Positions 1 to 48,055 of a stretch of 64,000 bases of DNA are shown piece after piece. The DNA comes from Escherichia coli (GTDB lineage: Bacteria > Pseudomonadota > Gammaproteobacteria > Enterobacterales > Enterobacteriaceae). The stretch's first letter is position 1. Each line of letters starts with the position of its first letter. Made by a program: the position numbers and the translations under genes. The stretch lies in NCBI RefSeq assembly GCF_050920415.1, contig NZ_CP169309.1; one strand, given 5' to 3'. The notes beneath the pieces were generated by a model. The model was not told where the DNA came from, searched no databases, and saw nothing but the letters and a program-made list of their open reading frames with translations.

Positions 1-377
1 GAGAAATCACGGGGCCGTGGCAGTCGCATCCCAAACGGATGTTACGTCATAAAGCCATGATTCAGTGTGCCCGTCTGGCCTTCGGATTTGCTGGTATCTA
101 TGACAAGGATGAAGCCGAGCGCATTGTCGAAAATACCGCATACACTGCAGAACGTCAGCCGGAACGCGACATCACTCCGGTTAACGATGAAACCATGCAG
201 GAGATTAACACTCTGCTGATTGCCCTGGATAAAACATGGGATGACGACTTATTGCCGCTCTGTTCCCAGATATTTCGCCGCGACATTCGCGCATCGTCAG
301 AACTGACACAGGCCGAAGCAGTGAAAGCTCTCGGATTCCTGAAACAGAAAGCCACTGAGCAGAAGGTGGCAGCATGA
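1..377 (+). CDS. bet: Bet-like single-strand annealing recombinase, C-terminal part (5' end lies outside the window)
   Basis: Frame is open from the window edge to the stop at 375-377; ATGA stop/start overlap with the downstream exo gene as in the lambda red operon; C-terminal sequence recognised from memory as lambda Bet-like. Confidence 0.6.
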
Positions 378-1054
378 CACCGGACATTATCCTGCAGCGT
401 ACCGGGATCGACGTGAGAGCTGTCGAACAGGGGGATGATGCATGGCACAAATTACGGCTCGGCGTCATCACCGCTTCAGAAGTTCACAACGTGATAGCAA
501 AGCCCCGCTCAGGAAAGAAGTGGCCTGACATGAAAATGTCCTACTTCCACACCCTGCTTGCCGAGGTTTGCACCGGTGTGGCTCCGGAAGTTAACGCTAA
601 AGCACTGGCCTGGGGAAAACAGTACGAGAACGACGCCAGAGCCCTGTTTGAGTTTACTTCCGGCGTGAATGTTACTGAATCCCCGATCATCTATCGCGAC
701 GAAAGTATGCGCACCGCCTGCTCTCCCGATGGTTTATGCAGTGACGGCAACGGCCTTGAACTGAAATGCCCGTTTACCTCCCGGGATTTCATGAAATTCC
801 GGCTCGGTGGTTTCGAGGCAATAAAATCGGCTTACATGGCCCAGGTGCAGTACAGCATGTGGGTGACGCGAAAAGATGCCTGGTACTTTGCCAACTATGA
901 CCCACGAATGAAGCGTGAAGGCCTGCATTATGTCGTGATTGAGCAGGATGAAAAGTACATGGCGAGTTTTGACGAGATGGTGCCGGAGTTCATCGAAAAA
1001 ATGGACGAGGCACTGGCTGAAATTGGTTTTGTATTTGGGGAGCAATGGCGATGA
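374..1054 (+). CDS. exo: Lambda-type 5'-3' exonuclease (YqaJ/lambda Exo family), 226 aa
   Basis: 226 aa ORF starting [40 protein letters not shown], recognised as near-identical to phage lambda Exo; position immediately after bet. Confidence 0.85.
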
Positions 1055-1233
1055 AGCATCCTCACGATAATATCCGGGTAGGCGCGATCACTTTCGTCTA
1101 CTCCGTTACAAAGCGAGGCTGGGTATTTCCCGGCCTTTCTGTTACCCGAAATCCCCTGAAAGCACAGCGGCTGGCTGAGGAGATAAATAATAAACGGGGA
1201 GCTGTATGCACAAAGCATCTCCTGTTGAGTTAA
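1045..1233 (+). CDS. Small lambdoid early-left protein (lambda Orf60a-like)
   Basis: 62 aa ORF overlapping the exo stop, same position as orf60a in lambda. Confidence 0.45.
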
Positions 1234-1397
1234 GAACGAGCATTGAGATGGCACATAGCCTCGCTCAAATTGGAGTCAGGTTTGTGCCAATACCAGTAGA
1301 AACAGACGAAGAATTTCATACGTTAGCCGCATCCCTTTCACAAAAGCTGGAAATGATGGTGGCGAAAGCAGAAGCAGATGAGAGAGACCAGGTATGA
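1206..1397 (+). CDS. Small lambdoid early-left protein (lambda Orf63-like)
   Basis: 63 aa ORF, same strand, positional equivalent in the lambda b-region. Confidence 0.4.
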   Translation: MHKASPVELRTSIEMAHSLAQIGVRFVPIPVETDEEFHTLAASLSQKLEMMVAKAEADERDQV

Positions 1398-1473
1398 CAA
1401 CCACTGAATGCATTTTTCTGGCAGCGGGCTTCATATTCTGTGTGCTTATGCTTGCCGACATGGGACTTGTTCA

Positions 1474-1689
1474 ATGACACATCAGCAAGAAAACGCCCTT
1501 CGCAGTATTGCCCGTCAGGCTAATTCTGAAATCAAAAAAGCCAGACAGCAGTTCCCGGATAAAAACGTCGATGATATTTGCCGTAGCGTACTGAAGAAGC
1601 ACCGCGAAACGGTAACGCTGATGGGATTCACACCGACTCATTTAAGCCTGGCGATCGGCATGTTAAACGGCGTCTTTAAGGAACGGTGA
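1474..1689 (+). CDS. Small lambdoid early-left protein (lambda Orf61-like)
   Basis: ORF 1408-1689; start placed at the internal Met (MTHQQENALRS...) by analogy with lambda. Confidence 0.4.
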   Translation: MTHQQENALRSIARQANSEIKKARQQFPDKNVDDICRSVLKKHRETVTLMGFTPTHLSLAIGMLNGVFKER

Positions 1690-1787
1690 GCATGAAAAAC
1701 AAAATCATCATGGAGCTACAGGCTCCTTTTTTATTATTCGCATTCACCCTCAAGCGTATTAACCAACAATTCAGGGATTAATGAAAG

Positions 1788-2006
1788 ATGGCAGACATCA
1801 TTGATTCAGCATCAGGAATTGAAGAATTACAGCGCAACACAGCAATAAAAATGCGCCGCCTGAACCACCAGGCTATATCTGCCACTCATTGTTGTGAGTG
1901 TGGCGATCCGATAGATGAACGAAGACGCCTGGCCGTTCAGGGTTGTCGGACTTGTGCAAGTTGCCAGGAGGAGATCGAACTTAAGAACAAACAATGGGGA
2001 CTGTGA
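1788..2006 (+). CDS. TraR/DksA-family C4 zinc-finger protein, phage-encoded
   Basis: 72 aa with CxxC(17)CxxC pattern (CCECGD...CRTCASC) typical of TraR/DksA-like proteins; good spacing from upstream genes. Confidence 0.6.
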   Translation: MADIIDSASGIEELQRNTAIKMRRLNHQAISATHCCECGDPIDERRRLAVQGCRTCASCQEEIELKNKQWGL

Positions 2007-2053
2007 TGGCCTCAAAGCAGCAAATTTCAACATCGTCCAACTGAGGTGTAAAA

Positions 2054-2332
2054 ATGTTCAGAATCATTTTTCCTAACACCTGGTACGTCGACCACCACGG
2101 CACTCCCTGCAAAATCCTGCGTTCTACCCACAACAAAGTTCACTACATCCGAAAAGGCAGAACATGTATCGCCAGCATGTTCCGCTTTAATCATGACTTT
2201 GAACCTGTGAATAAAGCTGATGCAGATCGGATAGCAGAAGAGATCGAAACGGCAGAACACATTAAGAAGTTACGTGACATGCGTTCAAAAAGCAGAGGTA
2301 ACCATGGAATCATACAGCCTCACACTCGATGA
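2054..2332 (+). CDS. Hypothetical prophage protein
   Basis: 92 aa ORF between the zinc-finger gene and xis; no recognisable motif. Confidence 0.3.
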   Translation: MFRIIFPNTWYVDHHGTPCKILRSTHNKVHYIRKGRTCIASMFRFNHDFEPVNKADADRIAEEIETAEHIKKLRDMRSKSRGNHGIIQPHTR

Positions 2333-2675
2333 GGCCTGTCAGTTTCTTAAGATATCCAGACCAACCGCCACCAACTGGATACGAACAGGCCGCCTACAGG
2401 CAACACGTAAAGATCCAACCAAGCCAAAATCTCCTTACCTCACAACACGGCAAGCCTGCATTGCGGCGCTTCAGTCTCCGCTGCATACTGTCCAGGTGAG
2501 CGCGGGTGATGGCATAACAGAGGAAAGAAAATGTCACTCTTCCGCAGAAATGAAATATGGTATGCCTCGTATTCGCTCCCGGGCGGGAAACGAATTAAGG
2601 AATCTCTTGGCACAAAGGACAAGCGGCAAGCTCAGGAGTTGCACGACAAGCGAAAAGCAGAACTCTGGCGAGTAG
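2304..2675 (+). CDS. xis: Putative excisionase (Xis); 3' end uncertain because the frame stays open into int
   Basis: Start ATG at 2304 preceded by GAGG; N-terminal 60 residues resemble a small DNA-binding excisionase; located directly upstream of and overlapping int as in lambdoid phages. Confidence 0.4.
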
Positions 2676-3694
2676 AAAAGCTAGGGGATTTACCTGATGT
2701 CACTTTTGAAGAGGCCTGCCTAAGATGGCTTGAGGAAAAAGCTGATAAAAAATCTCTCGATTCAGATAAAAGCCGGATTGAGTTCTGGCTTGAACATTTT
2801 GAGGGTATAAGGCTTAAAGATATCTCGGAGGCAAAGATTTACTCTGCTGTAAGCAGAATGCATAACAGAAAGACGAAAGAAATATGGAAACAGAAAGTTC
2901 AGGCCGCCATCAGGAAAGGTAAAGAACTGCCTGTTTATGAACCAAAGCCAGTATCAACTCAGACAAAGGCAAAGCATCTTGCCATGATAAAGGCCATTCT
3001 CCGTGCTGCAGAACGCGACTGGAAGTGGCTGGAAAAAGCGCCTGTCATCAAGATACCAGCGGTCAGAAACAAGCGAGTCAGATGGCTGGAAAAGGAGGAA
3101 GCAAAACGCCTTATTGATGAGTGCCCCGAACCACTGAAATCTGTCGTCAAGTTTGCGCTGGCAACTGGTCTGAGAAAGTCGAACATCATAAATCTGGAAT
3201 GGCAACAAATCGACATGCAGCGACGAGTTGCCTGGGTGAATCCAGAAGAGAGCAAATCAAACCGCGCCATTGGTGTGGCGCTAAACGATACCGCCTGTAA
3301 AGTGTTGCGTGATCAAATAGGCAAGCATCACAAATGGGTGTTTGTACATACCAAGGCGGCTAAGCGAGCAGATGGAACATCAACGCCTGCGGTCAGGAAG
3401 ATGCGCATCGACAGCAAGACATCATGGCTATCAGCTTGTCGTCGTGCAGGAATTGAAGATTTCCGTTTCCATGACCTCAGACACACCTGGGCAAGCTGGC
3501 TGATTCAGTCAGGCGTCCCATTATCAGTGCTTCAGGAAATGGGCGGATGGGAGTCCATAGAAATGGTTCGTAGGTATGCTCACCTTGCGCCTAATCATTT
3601 GACAGAGCATGCGAGGAAAATAGACGACATTTTTGGTGATAATGTCCCAAATATGTCCCACTCTGGAATTATGGAGGATATAAAGAAGGCGTAA
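2531..3694 (+). CDS. intD: Tyrosine site-specific integrase of an argU-integrating lambdoid prophage (DLP12 IntD type), 387 aa
   Basis: 387 aa; C-terminal catalytic region with [10 protein letters not shown] and RRYAHL motifs; ends 15 bp from the 3' end of tRNA-Arg. Confidence 0.9.
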
Positions 3695-3709
3695 CTGATT
3701 GAATTGTAA

Positions 3710-3786
3710 TGGCGCGCCCTGCAGGATTCGAACCTGCGGCCCACGACTTAGAAGGTCGTTGCTCTATCCAACTGAGCTAAGGGCGC
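3710..3786 (-). tRNA. argU: tRNA-Arg (anticodon UCU)
   Basis: 77 nt cloverleaf read on the minus strand: GCGCCCTTAGCTCAGTTGGATAGAGCAACGACCTTCTAAGTCGTGGGCCGCAGGTTCGAATCCTGCAGGGCGCGCCA; anticodon loop CT-TCT-AA; 3' CCA encoded. Confidence 0.9.
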
Positions 3787-22195: not shown

Positions 22196-23245
22196 ATGAA
22201 AATCAGTCGGGAAACACTCCACCAGCTAATCGAGAATAAACTCTGCCAGGCTGGGTTAAAACGTGAGCACGCTGCAACCGTGGCTGAAGTATTGGTTTAC
22301 GCCGATGCCAGAGGGATCCACTCTCATGGCGCGGTGCGCGTTGAATACTACGCAGAGCGCATATAAAAAGGCGGCACCAACCGCGAACCAGAGTTTCGTC
22401 TTGAAGAAACCGGACCGTGCTCGGCAATTTTACATGCCGACAATGCCGCCGGACAGGTCGCGGCAAAAATGGGTATGGAACATGCCATCAAAACCGCCCA
22501 GCAAAAAGGCGTTGCGGTGGTCGGTATCAGCCGGATGGGTCACAGCGGCGCAATCTCTTATTTTGTGCAGCAGGCAGCCCGCGCCGGATTGATTGGCATT
22601 TCGATGTGCCAGTCCGATCCAATGGTGGTGCCGTTTGGCGGCGCGGAAATTTACTACGGCACTAACCCACTGGCCTTTGCCGCGCCGGGAGAAGGCGACG
22701 AGATTCTTACTTTTGATATGGCGACTACCGTACAGGCGTGGGGGAAAGTTCTCGATGCACGCTCGCGCAATATGTCTATCCCGGATACTTGGGCGGTCGA
22801 TAAAAACGGTGCACCAACAACCGATCCCTTCGCGGTTAACGCCCTGCTCCCGGCTGCCGGACCGAAAGGTTATGGCCTGATGATGATGATCGACGTCCTC
22901 TCAGGCGTCTTACTCGGCTTACCGTTCGGGCGTCAGGTCAGTTCGATGTATGACGATTTACACGCCGGACGTAATTTGGGGCAATTACATGTAGTTATTA
23001 ATCCGAACTTTTTCTCCTCCAGCGAATTATTCCGTCAACATCTTAGCCAGACCATGCGCGAATTAAATGCCATTACCCCCGCGCCCGGTTTTAACCAGGT
23101 TTATTATCCCGGACAGGATCAGGATATTAAACAACACAAAACCGCCGTCGAAGGTATCGAAATTGTTGATGATATTTACCAGTATTTAATTTCCGACGCG
23201 CTTTATAACACGTCATACGAAACGAAAAATCCCTTTGCGCAATAA
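22196..23245 (+). pseudogene. allD: Ureidoglycolate dehydrogenase gene interrupted by an in-frame TAA at codon 57 (22364-22366)
   Basis: ATG at 22196 with AAGGAA RBS; MKISRETLHQLIENKLCQAGLKREHAATVAEVLVYADARGIHSHGAVRVEYYAERI then TAA; the same frame continues KGGTNREPEF... through the 258 aa ORF 22469-23245. Confidence 0.8.
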
Positions 23246-38364: not shown

Positions 38365-38782
38365 TATACCCGTCATACTTCAAGTTGCATATGCGTTGGC
38401 AAGTTATTCAGGGATAGCCGGATGAGTGACATCACCATCCGGCTTAAGATTCCATACTATAATAATTCGAGTTGCAGGACAAAACGCCAGTGGCGTTTTG
38501 AACAACGCTTGCGTTGACCCTGAAAGGGTGAGGCCTAAGGCCGAGTAACGCGACAGGCGAGTGACAAATTCGTCGGGAACGAATTTGACCAGCCTCTGGC
38601 TGGCCTTCGGTGAAAGGCATCCTGCCTTTCAGTCATCCCCAGTCACTTACTGGGGTGAGCGACAAATCCGCATGGAGCGGATTTGAACGCTGCTTGCAGC
38701 GGTCCCGTAAGGGGTGAGGCCCATGGATGGGCCGAATAACTCGCAGACGCAGCACATGCAACTTGAAGTATGATGGGTATAT
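38365..38782. repeat. ERIC/IRU-like composite intergenic element bounded by 30-bp inverted repeats
   Basis: Left arm tatacccgtcatacttcaagttgcatatgc, right arm gcacatgcaacttgaagtatgatgggtata; interior contains the ERIC core-like agtcacttactggggtgagcg and internally repeated ggtgaggcc...ggccga segments. Confidence 0.5.
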
Positions 38783-38939
38783 ACACAATGAACTTCAAGA
38801 CACTTGCTTCGGTATCTGGAAATTATCATTAATTCTGGATGCGACCAGCCTTGCTATATCTGGCAATGTTTCTTCAAAAACGTCGATATTGTATCCCAGA
38901 AATCTCACACACTGCTGAACCGGCATGTTCATTAATTAT

Positions 38940-39342
38940 TTATCCAGGCCATTTGCAATCAGTACCATCACTATTATATGCCTCAATATTTTCTTCAAAC
39001 TCAGTTATTTTTCCACTTTTCGATTTATAGTAAGAGCTATTAAATCTTGCACCCTGCGTAGCAACAACATACAATCCGTTGACTTTACATCCTATAACCT
39101 CACTCCATGTATATGTAAACTCTGAAGGTCTATCATCGAAAGTCACTTCCAATTTTTTCGTAAATGCAAGAGGTATGAAATTTGAGGATATTCCATAAAC
39201 CACATAACCTAAAACAACATCACCAGAAGATACTTCAACAAATTTTAAATTTATCTTCCCGAAACTAAAACAGCCAACCGTAGTTTGTTATTTAGCAAAT
39301 AAGAAAAAGGGCATCAAACAAAAAATTAAAACAAATAATTTA
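38940..39342 (-). pseudogene. Frameshifted remnant of a small exported protein
   Basis: ATG at 39342 opens a signal-peptide-like frame (MKVKLFVLIFCLMPFSYLL...) that stops after about 32 codons; a different frame continues as the 87 aa ORF 38940-39203. Confidence 0.3.
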
Positions 39343-40268
39343 ACTTTCATATCATTTACTCCAATTCAGTTATTCGCCTCTGTACAAAAGCACACACAGA
39401 TTTTGAATTAATGGCGTACAAAAACATAATCGGATGAAAATACCACACCGGAATATTACTGATATAGCGGGATCTTACTCATTCGCTAGACTGAAAATGC
39501 AATTGAACAGAAATTTCTTACTAGTGTTTTTATCAGATGATCGGAAAGGAAATCAACTCACTGGCAAGTATCATAAGCTCAAATTGGCATATTGTATATT
39601 CCCATAAATACTTTTATTTTTTGATTAACATACTCAATACTACACATCACTAATTGAGAGAAGATTAACTTCATCATCTTTGATTAGGTACGTTTTTTAA
39701 TTTTCAATGACGCATCATAAAAAAGGGCTTACCAAGTTTAACACTAATAACAGGATATAAAGAAAACATATTGCTATATGAATCCTTTGGCGATGTTTTG
39801 GTTATGGTAATCTTTCCTTCTTTCAAGTGCTCTGCTATTATATGAAATTGAATCGGTCTTGTTGCATCACTTACCCGCAATGGATTACCAGCGTAAGCTT
39901 CATATCCTCCACCATTATTCATATGTAAAATAGTGTATTCGTCATTTAAAAATGACTGCTTACTATCGTAGACTTGGTAGTATATATTACTTATATCAAG
40001 ATAAATTACTATAGAGATATACTTAATTTTTCATTTAGCATTAATGATGTATCCATGGAATCTATACATCTTTCAATATCAGTTATTTTTTCTTCTATAT
40101 ACGTAGCATAATTTTTTGGCACTGGCGTGTTTAGCCCTCATATACCCTCATTAACTAAGACACCATTTTGCTTGCTTTTTACATTGTAATAAAGACAATC
40201 AATATTGAATTTATTATTTTTATATTTCAGTGTTGTATATACAGTAAAATCATGCAGCGAACGCCCAT

Positions 40269-40544
40269 CTAAAACAATTGCGGGCGTGTCAGAAAAAAGT
40301 CAAATGAATAAGATGGATTATTTTCATAATCAGTCATAAATTTCATCTTTCTTATTTCATGATCAACGATCGCATAGATCTCATGATTAGATTCATCATA
40401 TCCATAAATGATTTCACCACCAGTACTGGCAGTAGCAGTAGCACTACTACAAATCAACATAATTACAAGTACATATCTAGTCAAGTTGAAAATCCTTAGG
40501 GGCAGATGATGTTTTTTCCAAGATGGATTGAAATTTTTCAACAT
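40269..40544 (-). CDS. Small hypothetical protein, possible orphan exported protein
   Basis: 91 aa ORF in an AT-rich decayed region; internal hydrophobic stretch. Confidence 0.25.
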   Translation of the reverse strand: MLKNFNPSWKKHHLPLRIFNLTRYVLVIMLICSSATATASTGGEIIYGYDESNHEIYAIVDHEIRKMKFMTDYENNPSYSFDFFLTRPQLF

Positions 40545-40854
40545 AAGAATCCATTAATTGCTTCTGATATTTTTCATTAATTATTTTTCGCGTATTATTA
40601 TATTAAATTTTATCACTGTTAATATATGTGGGGATTTTTACTCGTAAAAATCCCCGCCTCAATTCCCCAAATCATAATTGATACAGGACACAACTCTAGC
40701 AATGGTATCGTGAATAGTTTTCTTTAATAAGGCACGTCTCAATTCTTGAACATAAATTCGAATTATTTAGTAAAAAAACATCATCCCTGGGAGTATTACC
40801 TATTTTTGTATAATGCTATATTTATAGTAAACAATTCACAAGAAAATATTATTA

Positions 40855-41826
40855 CTAATATTTATATTCCTCCCACTGAGCACCGTATCGATGCTTTAAC
40901 AGTTTAACTTTAATTTCATCATATGTTTTAACTTTACTACCATCAATCTTAAGGCGAATTTTATTCGAGGTGATATCAACATAATTTCTATTTTCCCCAC
41001 CCGCAGGGAAAAAATCAAACATAAAATTAGACATGTTTTGTTCTTTTTTCATGAGAGCTCCATACTCACACATGTCATTTATATTTTGTATGTATGGAGT
41101 GCCCCCCTGACATGATGGATAATGAAAATCAATTATAGTAAAAAGCGATTTATTGACACTCCTCTGAAAGAACCACTTATTATTTACAATACGATAGGTT
41201 AAAGATTTAAATGTATACCAGTGACTTCCTGGAAGAAAAGAGTAAGCTTCATTAAGATTGACAGTAAATACCTTAGTTTCTCCAGAGGAAAGCTTTACCC
41301 ATTCTGATTTTATATCACAATTATCGCCCATACCAAAATAAAGCTCATCATTGGCATCATCCTCAACAAAATCACATATATTGGTTGCGGAAGGACGGAA
41401 TTTCAGATAGAAACCACTTGTGGATATTAAAAAAGAATCCTCACATAAAGGAGAAAAAAAATAAGGCTCCGATGTGTGTGAGGAGATAGGTAATAATCGT
41501 CTATGAATGAAATTTTCGCTACCCCCCAAATTTGTAAAACTTATTTTTGCTAACACACGAGAGTCAATTTGCTTAACGGTTAATCTAACATCAACATCAA
41601 ACATATTACGATTTGGCAATTTTTCCTCGACTCCGTCAGTGTAATGTGATAACTCAAGTATATTGTCCTCAAGAGTCATCGAATTTAATTTTTGTTCGGA
41701 AACATATTGTGCAATAACCTCATCATTGCAGTATCCATGAAATGAAATAAACATTAGCACTGCAATCTTAACTAATCTCAAAATACTTTTCAATATTGTA
41801 TGCATTATTAAAAACCAGCGGGTCAT
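40855..41826 (-). CDS. Putative immunity protein 2 (exported), paralogue of the 43491-44312 gene
   Basis: 323 aa; N-terminal hydrophobic signal-like segment; conserved segments shared with 43491-44312 (FTN...S, FxPG..Y, F.KS..Y+.VN+KWF); directly downstream of the HExxH gene. Confidence 0.6.
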   Translation of the reverse strand: MTRWFLIMHTILKSILRLVKIAVLMFISFHGYCNDEVIAQYVSEQKLNSMTLEDNILELSHYTDGVEEKLPNRNMFDVDVRLTVKQIDSRVLAKISFTNLGGSENFIHRRLLPISSHTSEPYFFSPLCEDSFLISTSGFYLKFRPSATNICDFVEDDANDELYFGMGDNCDIKSEWVKLSSGETKVFTVNLNEAYSFLPGSHWYTFKSLTYRIVNNKWFFQRSVNKSLFTIIDFHYPSCQGGTPYIQNINDMCEYGALMKKEQNMSNFMFDFFPAGGENRNYVDITSNKIRLKIDGSKVKTYDEIKVKLLKHRYGAQWEEYKY

Positions 41827-42582
41827 GTTTTGATTTTAATTCTTTTGCATTGGCAATTTCTCTTTTTTTTCCCAAATCGTTACTGCTTAATCCACCATAA
41901 TACTGTTCTCCATCCCAGATAATAAAAAGGTGAGATAACTCATGGCATAATGTGGAGACTCGAGAGTTTTCTCCCGTTGGATTTTTACATGTGAAATTTT
42001 GTAAGATATCTATAGATATTCTTTCTCGATACTCTAACTTTAAAAGTTCAGCCTTCGACTTATTTTTATACTCACTACTTTGGTATTGGGGCCGATTTAG
42101 ATCTATATGAGTCGTCTGAGCAGCCGGTATACGGGCTGAACCATTGACTAAATTGGTATAATTTTTAAAATTGCCATATATTAGTTGTACATTATCTTGC
42201 GTTCGAGTTTCAATGATCAAGCTATCACAAATCATGATCATTCTGTAAACCCCCTCTTTTATAAAAGTATGTGCGTCAATATTCTTGGTTTGTGGAGTGA
42301 AGTTCCCATTATTATCTGACTTTTGACAAGGAGCATAGTGTTCCATTGTTATAATAGCATCACCTGGTAATCCAAATATATCTTCAAAATTTTTCTGATC
42401 TGCTGGTGTCCATGCTTCCAGATTTTTGCTCTGATATTCAATACTCGCTTTGTTTCTTCCAAAGCAGGCGTTATCATGTTGTAAAATTGATCAGTAACCT
42501 TTGCTTCTTTTTTACATATATTGCCTTTTTGAGTTACCCCTTGTGAACTTCCTTTGTTATTATTCATAAACACCTCCCTCAA
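41768..42582 (-). pseudogene. HExxH-motif putative type VI effector, copy 2, disrupted by a -1 frameshift in an A5 run
   Basis: Two ORFs (42349-42582 and 41768-42346) in different frames both align to the intact paralogue at 44336-45127; HELSH at 41930-41944; frames switch at the T5/A5 run 42423-42427. Confidence 0.7.
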
Positions 42583-42975
42583 TCATATCTATACTTTGAT
42601 GCAATAGCCTGACTTTTATCGTCAGCTCACTGTCAGTGATAAATATTTCCGTATACCCATCCTTATCCGTTTCCCCTCGCGCTTGTGTGCCGTCCTCAAA
42701 AAAGGCAATGTAGCGTGTTTCTGAATACGGTATCCCGTCATCGTCTGTAAAATGAAACTGGAGGGTGTATTTCTCAGGTTCATCCTTATCTTCATTGTCG
42801 TTCCCAGAATCATTTCCATCGCCACCACCGACCCCGCCATTGCCTTGCCCGCCCTCTGCACCACCATCTTTATCACTACCTTCATCCGTCAGTGCCTCCA
42901 GCACGCCCGGTTGCAGTGTCGGTACCGGAGTCCCCGGACTACCCCCACCATTCAGATTTATCTTCGGCCCCCAGG
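42560..42975 (-). pseudogene. Orphan 3' fragment of a vgrG gene (last 140 codons or so)
   Basis: Translation GPKINLNGGGSPGTPVPTLQP...DEPEKYTLQFHFTDDDGIPYSETRYIAFFEDGTQ matches the C-terminal region of the full vgrG at 45117-47522; DNA 42897-42970 matches 45463-45536; no upstream vgrG body. Confidence 0.75.
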
Positions 42976-43335
42976 GAAAGATTACGAAAGCCCGCTCCCC
43001 GCAAGGACTGACGCCAGATACTTTCTGTCCATGGCTGCTTTTCGCATCTTACGTCTTAACCCTGCCTTGAATACCTTATCATTCGTCAAAATATTAATAG
43101 CGATGTGCCGTATCCCTGAAAATAATTCTGCTGCATTTCCTCTTCTTATTTTGCAGTCGTCTTCATTCATTACCACGTCCAGACGCCAGTGCAGCTTATT
43201 CTCCACGTGCCCGTGGTTTCGGATTGCTGTGGCGAACTTCTCTGCGGTTAAATCAGCAGAACTGATATAATATCTGACCGTCATTTCTGGCTCTTTCTTT
43301 TGTTCTGCTATTATGGACCGAAAGGAGACTGCCAC
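42972..43335 (-). mobile_element. H-repeat (ISAs1-family) transposase 3' remnant
   Basis: 117 aa ORF ending ...[28 protein letters not shown], recognised as the C-terminus of H-rpt/ISAs1-type transposases; no N-terminal part present. Confidence 0.65.
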
Positions 43336-43490
43336 GCATAATTTCTTCAGCCCTTTCCATTCAAACGTGAAATCAATAAGTTCATCAGGGACATCGCAAA
43401 CAATATGAAGACGGATTTCTTCTCTGCCGTGACTAAAATGCGAATTATTTAGTACAAAAAAAGCGGCGCACCTTGTTCTTTCCCAGATTC

Positions 43491-44312
43491 CTAATATGGC
43501 AACTTTAAGTTATCGCCGTCTATACTTATAGAAATTTCATCAGGGGTGACGTAAATAGAATTTTTTTCATCCTCAATTGCCCATAACTGATTAATAAAAA
43601 AGTGTTTTTTTTCATCTAATAACAAATTATCACATGTAGTAAAATTATTAATATCAAAAAGATCATCAGCACAATTAATTTTTAAATTTAAAAAATAAAG
43701 AAAAATATTATTGATTGATTTGAGTGTAAACCACTTGTCATTAACAAATTTATAGCCAGATGATTTTATAAAATAATAATTATCTCCTGGTATAAAGGCA
43801 TACATATCATTTAAGGTTATACTCAACAAAAAACTACGACCTGGTTTAATAGTATTCCACCGTTCAGGATTCGTATTAATTTCAAAAGGACATGAACCAC
43901 CTAAGTAGTCCAACGTGATATTCCCAGAGTTGATTCTGAATGGTTTTTTGCATATTGCATCATATTCATCTCCTTTTCCATCTTTTACTTTCATAGGTAG
44001 ATAATATTTAGAAAAAAAATACGTGGTAGAGCTTTTGTTAGTAAAGGTTATGTTAGCAAAAATCCTGTTATTTTTTTTACTCATAGCTAATTGAGCATTG
44101 ACATCCGCTATATAATTTATATGATTACATTTTTTCTTACACTCATCATAATTTTCGATAGGATAAATTAATGGCCTTCCTTTGATATCTCTCTCAAGCC
44201 CAAACCCGTATTTTTTTATTAAAACCATTTCATCTGCAGTCGATTGAAAGGAATAGAAAAATATAATATTTACGATTGTCATTATTATGATTTTTTTTAT
44301 AGCTTGCAGCAT
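43491..44312 (-). CDS. Putative immunity protein 1 (exported)
   Basis: 273 aa, hydrophobic N-terminus ([16 protein letters not shown]); immediately downstream of the HExxH gene; paralogue of 40855-41826. Confidence 0.6.
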
Positions 44313-44335
44313 TAATATATTTCTCGACTTATTAG

Positions 44336-45127
44336 TTAATGGAGAAGTGCTTTTTCTAATTCCGCTATTTTTTTCTTAACTAAATTGCTTAATATTTCAT
44401 CATTAATCGAGTCTATCTCACTTTCAATTAATCTTATTTCAAAATATCTTTCTATGTTATATGCATTCTCAAATATTTGATCTTTTTGTTTAGAGATCAG
44501 TTTAGTTGCAATACGGATATGTTCGTCATATGAAACTTCATCCTCTTTGCACGTTGAATATTTATCAGTAGTTGTATAATCCTGTGACCACATACCACCT
44601 TTTTTATTATCCCTATAATACCACTGAATATGAGACATTTCATGACATAAAGTAGCAACATGAGAATCCTTTCCCGTTACTGGATTTTTTTTGCCATCTC
44701 TATACTCAAATTTTGCGCCTATGTTAATTATATAGGGCATATCCTTACTTGGGCTGACGAATGCTGCAAATTCATTACAACCTGTATAATTTATAAAACT
44801 GCTCATTGTTAAATCATTAGCTATAATCATTAATCTTCTCACACCATCCATCATAAGAAATCTAGCATTCATGCGCCTGCCTGTATTATGTCCATATTTT
44901 CTTATATTAACTTCCTTATTTCCTTTAACACCAAAGATCTTACTGAAATCATATTCCTCCTGTGCTCCCCATCTCAAAAGATCATCTGCTCTTTTTATCA
45001 AAACCAACTTTTGTGCCTTACGAGCCTTATCAATCATTATTTTAAAATGATCAGTTATTTTTTGCTCTTTCACACATTCTTCTGGCTCTGGCTTTGGTTG
45101 TCCAGAAGTTTGATTATTATCGTCCAT
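44336..45127 (-). CDS. HExxH-motif putative zinc-metallopeptidase-like type VI effector, copy 1 (intact)
   Basis: Start ATG 45127 with AAGGA RBS, overlapping the vgrG stop; HEMSH at 44630-44644 (catgaaatgtctcat on the sense strand); no signal peptide; low GC. Confidence 0.7.
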   Translation of the reverse strand: MDDNNQTSGQPKPEPEECVKEQKITDHFKIMIDKARKAQKLVLIKRADDLLRWGAQEEYDFSKIFGVKGNKEVNIRKYGHNTGRRMNARFLMMDGVRRLMIIANDLTMSSFINYTGCNEFAAFVSPSKDMPYIINIGAKFEYRDGKKNPVTGKDSHVATLCHEMSHIQWYYRDNKKGGMWSQDYTTTDKYSTCKEDEVSYDEHIRIATKLISKQKDQIFENAYNIERYFEIRLIESEIDSINDEILSNLVKKKIAELEKALLH

Positions 45128-47522
45128 AGTGTCCTTCCATTGAGAGAAAATCATCATTCGCAAATAGCAACTTCACTTTAATTTCATGTTTGCTAGATAC
45201 AAAAAAACGCTCTGTATACCCCTCTTCATCCGTTTCTCCGCGGGTCTGCGTGCCATCCTCAAAGAAGGCAATGTAGCGGGTTTCTGAATACGGTATCCCG
45301 TCATCGTCTGTAAAATGGAACTGGAGAGTATATTTTTCAGGTTCATCCTCATCGTCACCTCGATCATCACCACCACTTCCGGTCACGCAGTTCCCTCCAG
45401 AGTTTTCATTTTCTTCTCCGGAATCACTGCCATCACCACTCTTCTCATCCCCCAGTGTCTTCAGCACCGCCGGTTGCAGCGTCGGTACAGGCGTCCCCGG
45501 ACTGCCTCCCCCGTTCAGATTTATCTTCGGCCCCACTATATCCACGCCCCCTGAATGGATGACCACAAACGAGCCACCCAACTTCAGGCTTATCCGGCTG
45601 CTGCTCTCCAGCACGATATCCCCGTCCACCTTTATCCCCAGCGCACCACTCACCTTCCTCGCCAGGTCGCCTTTCACCTCCAGGCTGTGTTTTCCCTCCA
45701 CCAGGCTGATGTGGTTTCCTGTCGTTTTGTGCTCCTGCTTCCCTTCCACCGTCACCTTTCGGTCGTTTCTGACGTACAGACCGTCATCGTGGCTGACGTT
45801 CACCCGCCGGTCGTTCGTCACCTTCAGCGTCTGGTCGTTGCGCACCGTGATGCTCCGGTCATGGGCCACCGTGATACTCTGGTCGTGGCCCCCTTCTTTT
45901 CTGGTGCCGACCTCAACCGTCTGCCCCTTCACCACCCTTATCTTCTGGTCGTTACCGATGGTCTCCGTATGGTCATGCTTCACGTCCGTCGTCCGGTCGT
46001 TAAGCACCTCCGTGTCCATGTTCTTCTGCGCGTGGATATACACCTGCTCACTGTCCGTCGCATCCTCGAAACGCAGTTCATTAAAGCCGCTTCCTTTATA
46101 GGTCTTCGAGCGGATGGTCATCTGCGTCCGCGTGCCCGGTAAATCCCCCGGTGAACGGTTATCTTCATGGTAGGTCCGCCCCGTCACAATGGGCTGGTCC
46201 GGGTCTCCGTTCAGAAAGTCCACTATCACTTCCTGACCCACACGCGGTATCGCCAGATTGCCGAACCCCGGTCCCGCCCATGCCTGCGACACCCGTATCC
46301 AGCATGAACTCTCCTCCGTCATCCCGTGATAACGGTCCCAGTGAAACTTCACCCGTACCCGGCCATGCTCGTCGCAGAATATCTCCTCGCCCTTCGGCCC
46401 GGTCACGATGGCACTCTGCGGGCCGTCCACCTTCGGCTTCGGCAGCGGCGCGTGACGCCACGTCCTGTCTGCCGGTATCACCTCAAACTGGTTACTCAGC
46501 GTCGTCCCTTCACCGTGACTGCCGTGCAGCGCCTGCGGCTGTTCTCCCCGCAGTGTGCTTCCCACAACCTGCCATTCCCGGTTCAGCGTATCCGACGGGT
46601 GACCCGACAGGGTAAACCGCGTTCCCGGCCACAGCCGCGCCGTGTTACACACCCCGCTCGCCGTCTCCGCCCCGTTCCGCCACCCTTCCGTCTGGTAACG
46701 CGCAAAATCCTGGCCATGCTGCTCATCCTTGAAACGCCCCGGATAATCAAATATCTCGTACTGCGTTCCCTGCCCGTTCAGGCTCTCCCCGTCATGGCTG
46801 TAGTACCCCGGCCACCCCGGCACTTTAAACGTATAATCCTGCGTCTCCACCGACGCCACGCTTATCTGCGCACGGTAACGAAACTCACTGATGTACTCCG
46901 TCGTTCCCCCGGTCGTCGTGTTCGGGTTAAACGCCAGCGCCCCCATTCCCGTCAGCCCCGCCACGTCATCACACACCGCCAGCTTCTGTTCCGGCCCGTC
47001 CTGACTGCAGCGTTCATAAAAGAAGATACCTTCCTCCGCCCACAGCCGGGTCAGGAACGCCAGGTCGCTCTCCCCGTACTGCACGCAGAACTCCCGCGCC
47101 GGATGGTCTTCATAAAACAGCGGCATCCACGCCGTCACCCCGTTCTCTCTCAGAAGCTGTGCTGATATCGTCCCGATGTCCTGCTGCTGGAAGATACGGA
47201 AGTTCTGCCGTAACCCTGCCCGCCACAGCGGCGGGCTGATGCTCAGGGAATAACGCATCTGCCAGTCGTTGTTCTCACCGAGCTGCACCTCCGTCACGAT
47301 ACCGCTGACGTAACGCTGTGCAGTGTCGCCCTGCCAGACCGTCAGCACCGCGCTTTTCTCCAGAAAATCCTCCGCCGTCAGGTCGGACAGCCCGCTGGCG
47401 ATATCCACATCCAGGATGAACGGTGTGCAGTGGTGCTGGTACAGACGGAAGCTCACCACCGCCGTCGCCATCTCCACGATGTCGTCCACCGACAGCGTGA
47501 AACGTAATCCTTCTGAGGACAT
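45117..47522 (-). CDS. vgrG: Type VI secretion spike protein VgrG with acidic Gly/Asp-rich linker and C-terminal extension domain
   Basis: 801 aa from MSSEGLRFTLSVDD; gp27-like N-terminal region, gp5-like repeats (VKHDHTETIGNDQKIRV...), then GGGSPGTPVPT, acidic linker and a C-terminal domain of about 60 aa. Confidence 0.9.
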   Translation of the reverse strand: MSSEGLRFTLSVDDIVEMATAVVSFRLYQHHCTPFILDVDIASGLSDLTAEDFLEKSAVLTVWQGDTAQRYVSGIVTEVQLGENNDWQMRYSLSISPPLWRAGLRQNFRIFQQQDIGTISAQLLRENGVTAWMPLFYEDHPAREFCVQYGESDLAFLTRLWAEEGIFFYERCSQDGPEQKLAVCDDVAGLTGMGALAFNPNTTTGGTTEYISEFRYRAQISVASVETQDYTFKVPGWPGYYSHDGESLNGQGTQYEIFDYPGRFKDEQHGQDFARYQTEGWRNGAETASGVCNTARLWPGTRFTLSGHPSDTLNREWQVVGSTLRGEQPQALHGSHGEGTTLSNQFEVIPADRTWRHAPLPKPKVDGPQSAIVTGPKGEEIFCDEHGRVRVKFHWDRYHGMTEESSCWIRVSQAWAGPGFGNLAIPRVGQEVIVDFLNGDPDQPIVTGRTYHEDNRSPGDLPGTRTQMTIRSKTYKGSGFNELRFEDATDSEQVYIHAQKNMDTEVLNDRTTDVKHDHTETIGNDQKIRVVKGQTVEVGTRKEGGHDQSITVAHDRSITVRNDQTLKVTNDRRVNVSHDDGLYVRNDRKVTVEGKQEHKTTGNHISLVEGKHSLEVKGDLARKVSGALGIKVDGDIVLESSSRISLKLGGSFVVIHSGGVDIVGPKINLNGGGSPGTPVPTLQPAVLKTLGDEKSGDGSDSGEENENSGGNCVTGSGGDDRGDDEDEPEKYTLQFHFTDDDGIPYSETRYIAFFEDGTQTRGETDEEGYTERFFVSSKHEIKVKLLFANDDFLSMEGHYGR

Positions 47523-47813
47523 ATAAACCCCATAGCTACCGCACTCATGGTGCAAACCCTACAGAATTATAAGAAAGACTTAAGTGAGATATCCGTCAGA
47601 TAGCAACTATTAGGAAAATATTTATATACATTTCATGAATACATTCATTAATACCGAGATGTTTTTGTCTATATAAACAGAGCAAGCTAACGTCCTCACT
47701 CCATGAAAGAAACTACGTAGGGGCCTTTCGGTCCATAACAACTTTTTCCCTGTTATATCCTGACGTTCTGGTCTACTGGTGTAGTCATGCATATTGCAAC
47801 GTTCTACCCATGG

Positions 47814-47900
47814 AAAGATAAATAAAGCCAGCTCTCCGCAAGGACTGAAGCGAGGTGCTTTCTGTCCATAGCTGCTTTTCGCAACTTACTCCTTAACCCA
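47814..47900 (-). mobile_element. Short H-repeat (ISAs1-family) 3' remnant, direct repeat of 42972-43060
   Basis: ctctccgcaaggactgaagcgaggtgctttctgtccatagctgcttttcgcaacttactccttaaccc aligns with the 3' end of the 42972-43335 remnant; encodes ...[19 protein letters not shown]. Confidence 0.55.
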
Positions 47901-48055
47901 ACACTGAATTTCTTATGATTTGTCACAGTATGAACTTTTAATTTCATACATTGCTCTTTAGTCAATAGAAGAAAAATAAGCACCCTCTCCCAAACGACAC
48001 AAATAACCTGCAAATGGGAAATGACTTATTACTTAGAAATTTGCAGAGATATAAA

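Follow-up and report, generated by a model that had tools for sequence, protein, structure and literature searches.

Why should a toxin gene be broken by a single missing base when the putative immunity gene that overlaps its stop codon is still intact? This question is raised by a type VI secretion system (T6SS) vgrG island in a stretch of 64,000 nucleotides from Escherichia coli (contig NZ_CP169309.1 of the RefSeq assembly GCF_050920415.1), which we term the window. The window is a chromosomal segment with allA, allS, mnmH/ybbB and, further on, ybbP, ybbA and tesA; the island lies on the minus strand between mnmH and ybbP, in the order vgrG, effector 1, immunity 1, ISAs1 remnant, vgrG 3' remnant, effector 2 (broken) and immunity 2. 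We refer to the first effector and its putative immunity gene as module 1 and to the second pair, with the vgrG remnant that precedes it, as module 2. An earlier note on this DNA, made from the sequence alone, had proposed that effector 2 lost a base from a run of adenines and had offered two explanations, namely decay of a displaced effector with selective retention of its immunity gene, or a homopolymer sequencing error. Comparison with relatives shows that a different base is missing, and the reading that we favour, with a confidence somewhat above even, is a recent, neutral and strain-private knockout of a non-deliverable orphan VgrG-linked effector.

The frame switch and the missing base

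The broken gene, its lesion and the two ORFs (open reading frames) left by it are as follows (aa, amino acids):

41768..42567, minus strand: effector 2, frameshifted, 266 aa when intact, with a Shine-Dalgarno sequence GAGGGAGG at 42573-42580
between 42427 and 42428, minus strand: the lesion, one G (C on the plus strand) missing, with the G present in 19/19 other loci
42349..42567, minus strand: residual N-terminal ORF of 72 aa (48 shared with the intact protein, followed by 24 out of frame)
41768..42346, minus strand: residual C-terminal ORF of 192 aa, starting from Met75 and holding the catalytic motifs

Read from the ATG at 42567 on the minus strand, the gene proceeds through ...EETKRVLNIRAK, followed by the 24 out-of-frame residues and a stop at 42349, with codon 48 still specifying lysine after the shift; the adjacent frame picks up NLEAWTPADQKNFEDIFG... 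and continues to a stop at 41768. Addition of one base yields a 266-aa protein identical to WP_001063571.1, which is found in two complete E. coli genomes, and alignment of the restored protein with the intact paralogue (44336-45127) spans the junction, at 29% identity and E 2e-24. The frame switch near 42427, its position and the homology of both of its halves to the intact effector, all of which the earlier note had put forward, are real and far beyond chance; the possibility that the halves might not be homologous to the intact copy, which that note had named as fatal to its proposal, was checked, and both halves align.

The sense strand reads ATATCAGAGC-G-AAAAATCTGG in 19/19 other loci, which comprise three complete RefSeq genomes, several GenBank drafts and independent Logan short-read assemblies, and ATATCAGAGC-AAAAATCTGG in the window. 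At the site itself (42423-42430), GAGCGAAAAAT denotes the intact gene and GAGCAAAAAT the deletion form, such that GCG(Ala47) AAA AAT has become GC AAAAAT. The run of A residues at 42423-42427 had been correctly described as A5. It is, however, A5 in 20/20 sequences, so that the comparison of homopolymer length among relatives, which had been suggested as a check, reveals no variation, and the base lost is the G of Ala47 rather than one from within the run as claimed. Two candidate histories of the site were rejected on these grounds: a homopolymer contraction (A6>A5) is ruled out by the presence of G followed by A5 in 19/19 relatives, and a phase-variable homopolymer contingency locus by the constant run length (A5 in 20/20) and by the position of the differing G outside the run. 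The statement that six A's would restore one reading frame is correct as arithmetic, since a sixth A would restore both the frame and the same residues (GCA AAA AAT, i.e. A K N); as a history of the site it fails, and the restoration of the protein by a sixth A is a coincidence. The methodological lesson is that a frame switch beside a homopolymer should not be presumed to be a contraction, given that relatives here show a different base to have been lost.

In the AlphaFold2 (AF2) model of the intact protein, the shift falls in the first long helix (residues 27-52, pLDDT about 97), and the HELSH motif (residues 209-213) and Asp231 of effector 2 lie downstream of it in the other frame. The 192-aa ORF that retains these residues has no Shine-Dalgarno sequence at a usable distance, the sole similar motif, AGGTGA, being located ~16-21 nt upstream. 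We regard the allele, if real, as null.

The lesion is private to one genome

In a collection of 15 billion proteins, the exact products of the two fragments (WP_432780828.1/XVM71449.1 of 72 aa and WP_432780827.1/XVM71448.1 of 192 aa) are on record on one contig only, and a lookup of other contigs encoding the frameshift fragments returned no further record. Intact 266-aa variants are found on at least 132 contigs, with the commonest variant being indexed in 136 collection blocks. The genome MFDS1022581 is collinear with positions 3708-64000 of the window and has the gene intact; over these ~60 kb the two differ by 4 isolated single nucleotide polymorphisms (SNPs), a 196-bp patch of SNPs, an IS2 insertion and the single G indel, and no other difference from its contig (L001) is seen in the 2.2 kb of module 2. 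Within the island a draft genome, L022, matches the window even more closely (1 mismatch in 6.8 kb), and here too the G is present. Because the fragments occur on one contig and near-identical genomes are intact, the lesion is private to the window genome and very recent, or else an error. Among the marks of a decayed pseudogene, the disabling lesion is present, but neither inheritance in independent assemblies nor further lesions are found, the allele being a singleton.

Two of the other differences from MFDS1022581 are of some interest in themselves. The 196-bp patch lies inside the resident full-length vgrG at 45669-45864 and comprises 26 substitutions; it is probably the result of gene conversion from another vgrG paralogue, and L022 carries the window's version of it. 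The IS2 insertion of ~1.3 kb in MFDS1022581 (9409-10738 of L001) is placed at 39594-39599, downstream of immunity 2, and the window is without IS2.

Module 2 as a displaced orphan

The elements that surround effector 2 are:

42982..43443, minus strand: ISAs1-family (H-repeat) transposase remnant, C-terminal part only (NCBIfam NF033564, E 2e-27, profile positions 241-314 of 314)
42560..42976, minus strand: 3' remnant of a second vgrG, without a usable start and reduced to its final 138 codons (64% identity with residues 675-804 of the resident VgrG at E 9e-46)
40855..41805, minus strand: putative immunity 2, intact, 316 aa (323 aa from the ATG at 41826), overlapping the stop of effector 2

At the DNA level the vgrG remnant is 77% identical to the resident vgrG over 329 bp, with a longest identical run of 38 bp. 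The two VgrG tails share an identical central block, EPEKYTLQFHFTDDDGIPYSETRYIAFFEDGTQ, and diverge over their final ~30 residues. In module 2, homology to vgrG starts exactly at the ISAs1 3' end (42970/42971), which abuts the vgrG remnant; the IS fragment is without its 5' part and is noted in RefSeq as 'incomplete; missing N-terminus'. A single deletion, extending from downstream of immunity 1 into an IS element inserted in the second vgrG (vgrG-B), would explain this junction. The same IS-vgrG junction is seen in 3/3 complete genomes and in 10/10 distinct places. Among 5,426 complete genomes we found no full-length E. coli VgrG with the module-2 tail; the longest VgrG with this tail is a 5'-truncated 415-aa product on contig L006, in which the tail is contiguous with the gp5 repeats. 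Module 2 is a displaced orphan effector-immunity module, which would have lost its own spike gene.

Contig L006 (Logan SRR25418695, 8236 bp) presents module 2 in another setting, with a doubly frameshifted effector after the 415-aa truncated vgrG. Its neighbours there are a shortened tssC, IcmF_C, ImpA_N/VasL and hcp genes and yafT, i.e. a degenerate main T6SS cluster and not the mnmH-ybbP context. In the window, a second ISAs1 3' end lies upstream of the resident vgrG (47807-47934) and is 80% identical over 128 bp to 42970-43097. Each vgrG unit is thus preceded by an ISAs1 end, an arrangement reminiscent of the association of H-repeats with Rhs elements.

C-terminal adaptor domains of VgrG proteins recruit cargo, as exemplified by the transthyretin-like domain of VgrG1 of enteroaggregative E. 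coli (EAEC), which functions with Tle1. The island resembles the VgrG1/Tle1 system in having a C-terminal extension past the gp5 repeats, an effector that overlaps the vgrG stop and a tail that covaries with the effector type (two of each), a likeness in sequence. We take the divergent tail ends to encode effector specificity, in which case effector 2 would be left without a carrier in the island. Because the spike gene is lost and the last ~30 residues of the VgrG tails differ, effector 2 is probably no longer loaded onto a spike.

Such an arrangement has parallels in the orphan modules of Vibrio cholerae (Kirchberger et al. 2017, PMC5361080) and in the orphan rhs-CT/immunity cassettes of Enterobacteria. 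In all of these the active module is followed on its 3' side by a second one with the same orientation, a 3' remnant of the carrier gene (here vgrG) precedes the module, and the effector copy is non-functional in some strains; the association with an H-repeat/ISAs1 element is shared with the E. coli Rhs loci. There are also differences. The carrier remnant is a VgrG tail and not an Rhs core or effector 3' end, the effector ORF is usually complete here (at least 132 contigs are intact) instead of the immunity gene alone, and immunity is not preferentially retained, immunity 2 being broken beside an intact effector in several strains.

Neutral loss, error and other explanations

In other assemblies of the island, independent 1-bp indels or nonsense changes are found in effector 2 (L003 and the L006 lineage), immunity 2, effector 1, immunity 1 and vgrG. 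Both this scatter of lesions and the probable failure of effector 2 to be loaded onto a spike lead us to propose relaxed selection. If the orphan module is wholly under such relaxed selection, then the frameshift in effector 2 would be neutral, and immunity 2 would be intact merely since nothing else has yet struck that gene. Module 2 of the window differs from its nearest genomes by this single base only, and the intact immunity 2 in the window is uninformative because no time has elapsed since the lesion. In itself the lesion is minor, being a private 1-bp deletion in a spare toxin gene that is probably already out of use, or a consensus error.

Several points weigh against a neutral knockout. 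The claim of non-delivery derives from the divergence of the VgrG tails, and a different VgrG elsewhere might carry effector 2. Between the two lineages of module 2, both genes have a dN/dS of less than 1 (0.39 for the effector with 9 substitutions, 0.25 for immunity with 16), values based on too few substitutions to prove or exclude constraint. The T6SS 'M35-peptidase' of E. coli BCE049 (PMC7904677), which informs the site of action proposed below, is likened to the effectors here by description. The remaining points concern whether the lesion exists at all: the allele is unique among 20 sequences, and an error would equally be expected to give a singleton; the site adjoins a homopolymer, where some long-read basecallers misplace deletions; and the analysis covered the consensus sequence, in which an error may lie.

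These last points lead to the strongest competing explanation, in which the strain has GCG AAA AAT and a sequencing or assembly error dropped the G beside the A5 run from the consensus. It would also account for the occurrence of the fragments on a single contig among the 15 billion proteins, and some of the scattered 1-bp indels in other assemblies of the island are perhaps errors too. Against it, the comparison with the near-identical MFDS1022581 reveals zero other indels over ~60 kb, on which basis a generally error-prone assembly was rejected. All 27 homopolymers of at least 7 bases in this comparison, including the 8 of at least 8 bases, are unchanged, and it is in these that long-read errors concentrate. 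The lost base lies outside the homopolymer, and the classic sequencing-error explanation is weakened because this base differs from the homopolymer base. A random error would have a ~1% chance of falling in this 0.8-kb gene, and real frameshifts would be expected to survive preferentially in dispensable genes. Further, immunity 2 has similar lesions in several assemblies independent of one another, Logan contigs built from Illumina reads among them, which indicates that real 1-bp deletions do arise in module 2. We accordingly take the lesion to be probably a real mutation. Of the error hypothesis of the earlier note, the homopolymer form is contradicted by the invariant A5; error in general is still a serious rival, although in our estimate less likely than a real knockout.

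A more doubtful proposition is that the composite island is a recombination-ready reservoir, with its cassettes of vgrG tail, effector and immunity gene and its ISAs1 ends serving in the manner of Rhs orphan toxins. By recombination in the 329-bp block, with its 38-bp core, the resident VgrG would acquire the orphan tail, and the weapon of the strain would change from effector 1 to effector 2. Were this true, private frameshifts such as that of the window would silently disarm a reserve weapon. Irrespective of any such use, orphan cassettes that combine a vgrG tail with an effector and an immunity gene persist beside ISAs1 remnants in E. coli vgrG islands, a situation similar to that of Rhs loci.

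The selective form of decay envisaged in the earlier note would have a costly or useless effector lost by selection-driven disarmament, with immunity kept against kin that fire effector 2. Displacement of an effector with retention of its immunity gene has been described in V. cholerae (PMC5361080), and one lineage of the present island (RMDEC465, L006 and P0006/7/9) conforms to it: here effector 2 has two lesions per genome (Y162* and A8>A7, or a T-run deletion and an A-run deletion) and immunity 2 is full length at ~1.5% divergence. However, a broken immunity fragment is also present in an RMDEC465-like lineage (P0024), and in at least five assemblies (L007-L011) immunity 2 is frameshifted with effector 2 intact, through two independent deletions, one of a C at 41384 and the other of a T in a T8 run at 41461. 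A rough tally among the members listed has effector 2 cut short in 12/~144 contigs and immunity 2 in 7-9/~140, with no clear asymmetry, and dN/dS likewise fails to separate the two genes. In the window, the effector and immunity genes together differ from those of relatives by one base. The parts of the earlier proposal that hold are the inactivated orphan copy and the uninterrupted downstream immunity homologue (40855-41805/41826); selective retention is not supported, immunity 2 being broken elsewhere, and we consider disarmament by selection to be improbable. Sporadic frameshifts in both effector and immunity fit relaxed selection better than the hoarding of immunity genes, and the simplest reading is a sporadic, roughly even decay (or error) across a weakly selected island.

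Finally, functional recoding, in which A5->A6 transcriptional slippage or a -1 slip of tRNA-Lys on A-AAA-A gives the full-length effector, is exceedingly improbable: the native ...RAKNLEAW... would indeed be regenerated by one additional A or by slipping -1 at GC-A-AAA-AT, but the relatives are all single-frame GCG AAA AAT with no conserved shift site, a P-site GCA is unable to re-pair in the -1 frame, E. coli RNA polymerase does not slip appreciably on a run of just five A's, and no downstream stimulatory structure was noticed, no search having been aimed at one.

The effector family and its predicted fold

The complete module, with which the orphan is compared here, consists of:

45117..47522, minus strand: resident full-length vgrG (tssI), 801 aa (NCBIfam TIGR03361, E 9e-177; RefSeq tssI in near-identical genomes)
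44336..45127, minus strand: effector 1, intact, 263 aa, an aspzincin/M35-like zinc peptidase with the motif HEMSH, identical to WP_000342580.1
43491..44312, minus strand: putative immunity 1, 273 aa, directly after effector 1 and homologous to immunity 2

The resident VgrG has a C-terminal extension past its gp5 repeats, and the start of effector 1, whose identical database entry WP_000342580.1 bears the name 'M35 family metalloendopeptidase', overlaps the end of vgrG. Profile searches with effector 2 recovered neither a match to Pfam Aspzincin_M35 (PF14521) nor an NCBIfam match, effector 1 matched the Pfam profile with only an i-E of 0.0045 (score 17.9), and a search of PDB sequences with the effector gave nothing at E values up to 10. 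As no significant match emerged from Pfam, NCBIfam or PDB sequences, the family assignment was made from motif conservation and fold. An alignment of 24 homologues shows H209, E210 and H213, which constitute an HExxH motif, and D231 to be invariant. D231, the candidate third zinc ligand, occurs in the signature GG[ML][GS][TS]xD, 18 residues past the second histidine, with G225 and a nearly invariant G226; this motif of effector 2 resembles the GTxD of GTxDxxYG, of which the xxYG part is absent. The family further shares a conserved C-terminal NAYNIEKYFEI, is small and is restricted to Enterobacterales (22 clusters).

The AF2 model of effector 2 has a pLDDT of 89.6 and a pTM of 0.85, with a hydrophilic, disordered N-terminus in the protein. 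In a Foldseek search of the PDB the top six matches are all to AsaP1 of Aeromonas salmonicida (2x3a/b/c) or to the peptidyl-Lys metalloendopeptidase (MEP) of Grifola frondosa (1ge6, 1g12), each with probability 1.00 and E values from 2e-3 to 8e-3, and with target-normalised TM scores of up to 0.73; the next matches have a probability of 0.2 or less. These aspzincins, the only convincing fold matches to effector 2, share with it the HExxH motif and a downstream invariant Asp. They differ in that sequence identity is only 13-16%, effector 2 is without a signal peptide or propeptide, and the effector family has its own N-terminal helical hairpin and the C-terminal NAYNIEKYFEI. Effector 2 would thus work like an aspzincin/M35-like zinc peptidase as judged by motif and modelled fold, with membership at the level of hidden Markov models (HMMs) not reached.

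Conserved gene neighborhoods link the family to VgrG. An orthologue from Enterobacter soli (60% identity) is encoded in the main T6SS cluster, overlapping the end of a full-length vgrG and followed by a 317-aa gene, and vgrG, effector and downstream gene are arranged likewise at the orthologue (66% identity) in an E. coli relative. Effector 1 in the window likewise comes directly after, and overlaps, its vgrG, and effector 2 follows a vgrG remnant only. A homologous downstream gene accompanies the effector in each case (the window, Enterobacter soli and the E. coli relative), its role in neutralisation being putative. Immunity 2 is homologous to immunity 1 (24% identity, E 2e-20). By inspection, the N-terminus of immunity 2 is hydrophobic and signal-peptide-like and that of immunity 1 is signal-peptide-like; profile searches found no Pfam match for immunity 2 and no Pfam or NCBIfam match for immunity 1.

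In E. coli BCE049 the T6SS 'M35-peptidase' shows toxicity only if a PelB leader directs its export (PMC7904677). Because that peptidase is toxic only in the periplasm and both immunity N-termini are signal-peptide-like, the most likely site of action of effector 2 is, by analogy, the target-cell periplasm. The observed gene order, motifs and fold are the basis of a likely mechanism in which a VgrG-carried cargo peptidase would be delivered to attack a periplasmic or cell-envelope target, and a periplasmic immunity protein would neutralise it. The C-terminal domain of Pseudomonas aeruginosa VgrG2b (PMC6899460) offers a comparison, being a zinc peptidase associated with a VgrG spike whose immunity protein is predicted to be periplasmic. 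In VgrG2b, however, the peptidase is a covalent C-terminal domain and of a different zincin type, as opposed to the separate cargo gene seen here. A literature search for aspzincin together with type VI secretion found no paper. These effectors may represent a barely characterised, Enterobacterales-restricted aspzincin family of periplasm-acting T6SS toxins, which could merit biochemical study independently of the lesion.

Other observations on the island and the window

In one complete genome (L018, AP025751.1) the equivalent of 43600-44490 contains nine indels and additional mismatches concentrated in immunity 1 and effector 1; module 1 is there either heavily decayed or recombined, or falls in a poorly assembled region. 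A scan of the island for promoters and terminators returned AT-rich background matches only. The interval from immunity 2 to mnmH (38400-40850) is AT-rich and has several small ORFs, including 39704-39922 and a 91-aa ORF, 40269-40544, whose N-terminus is hydrophobic; sister genomes annotate the equivalent stretch as hypothetical proteins and IS fragments, and it may hold further orphan remnants.

Away from the island, allD (ureidoglycolate dehydrogenase; 22196-23245, plus strand) has an internal stop codon (...YYAERI*KGG...), and MFDS1022581 bears this lesion too, under the annotation 'internal stop', from which it follows that it is inherited and that allD is a true pseudogene in this lineage. 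At the start of the window (1-3707) lies the end of a lambdoid prophage with bet-like, exo-like and xis-like genes and a 387-aa integrase (2531-3694), which adjoins tRNA-Arg(tct) at 3710-3786; at the position of this prophage MFDS1022581 has envY-ybcH-nfrA.

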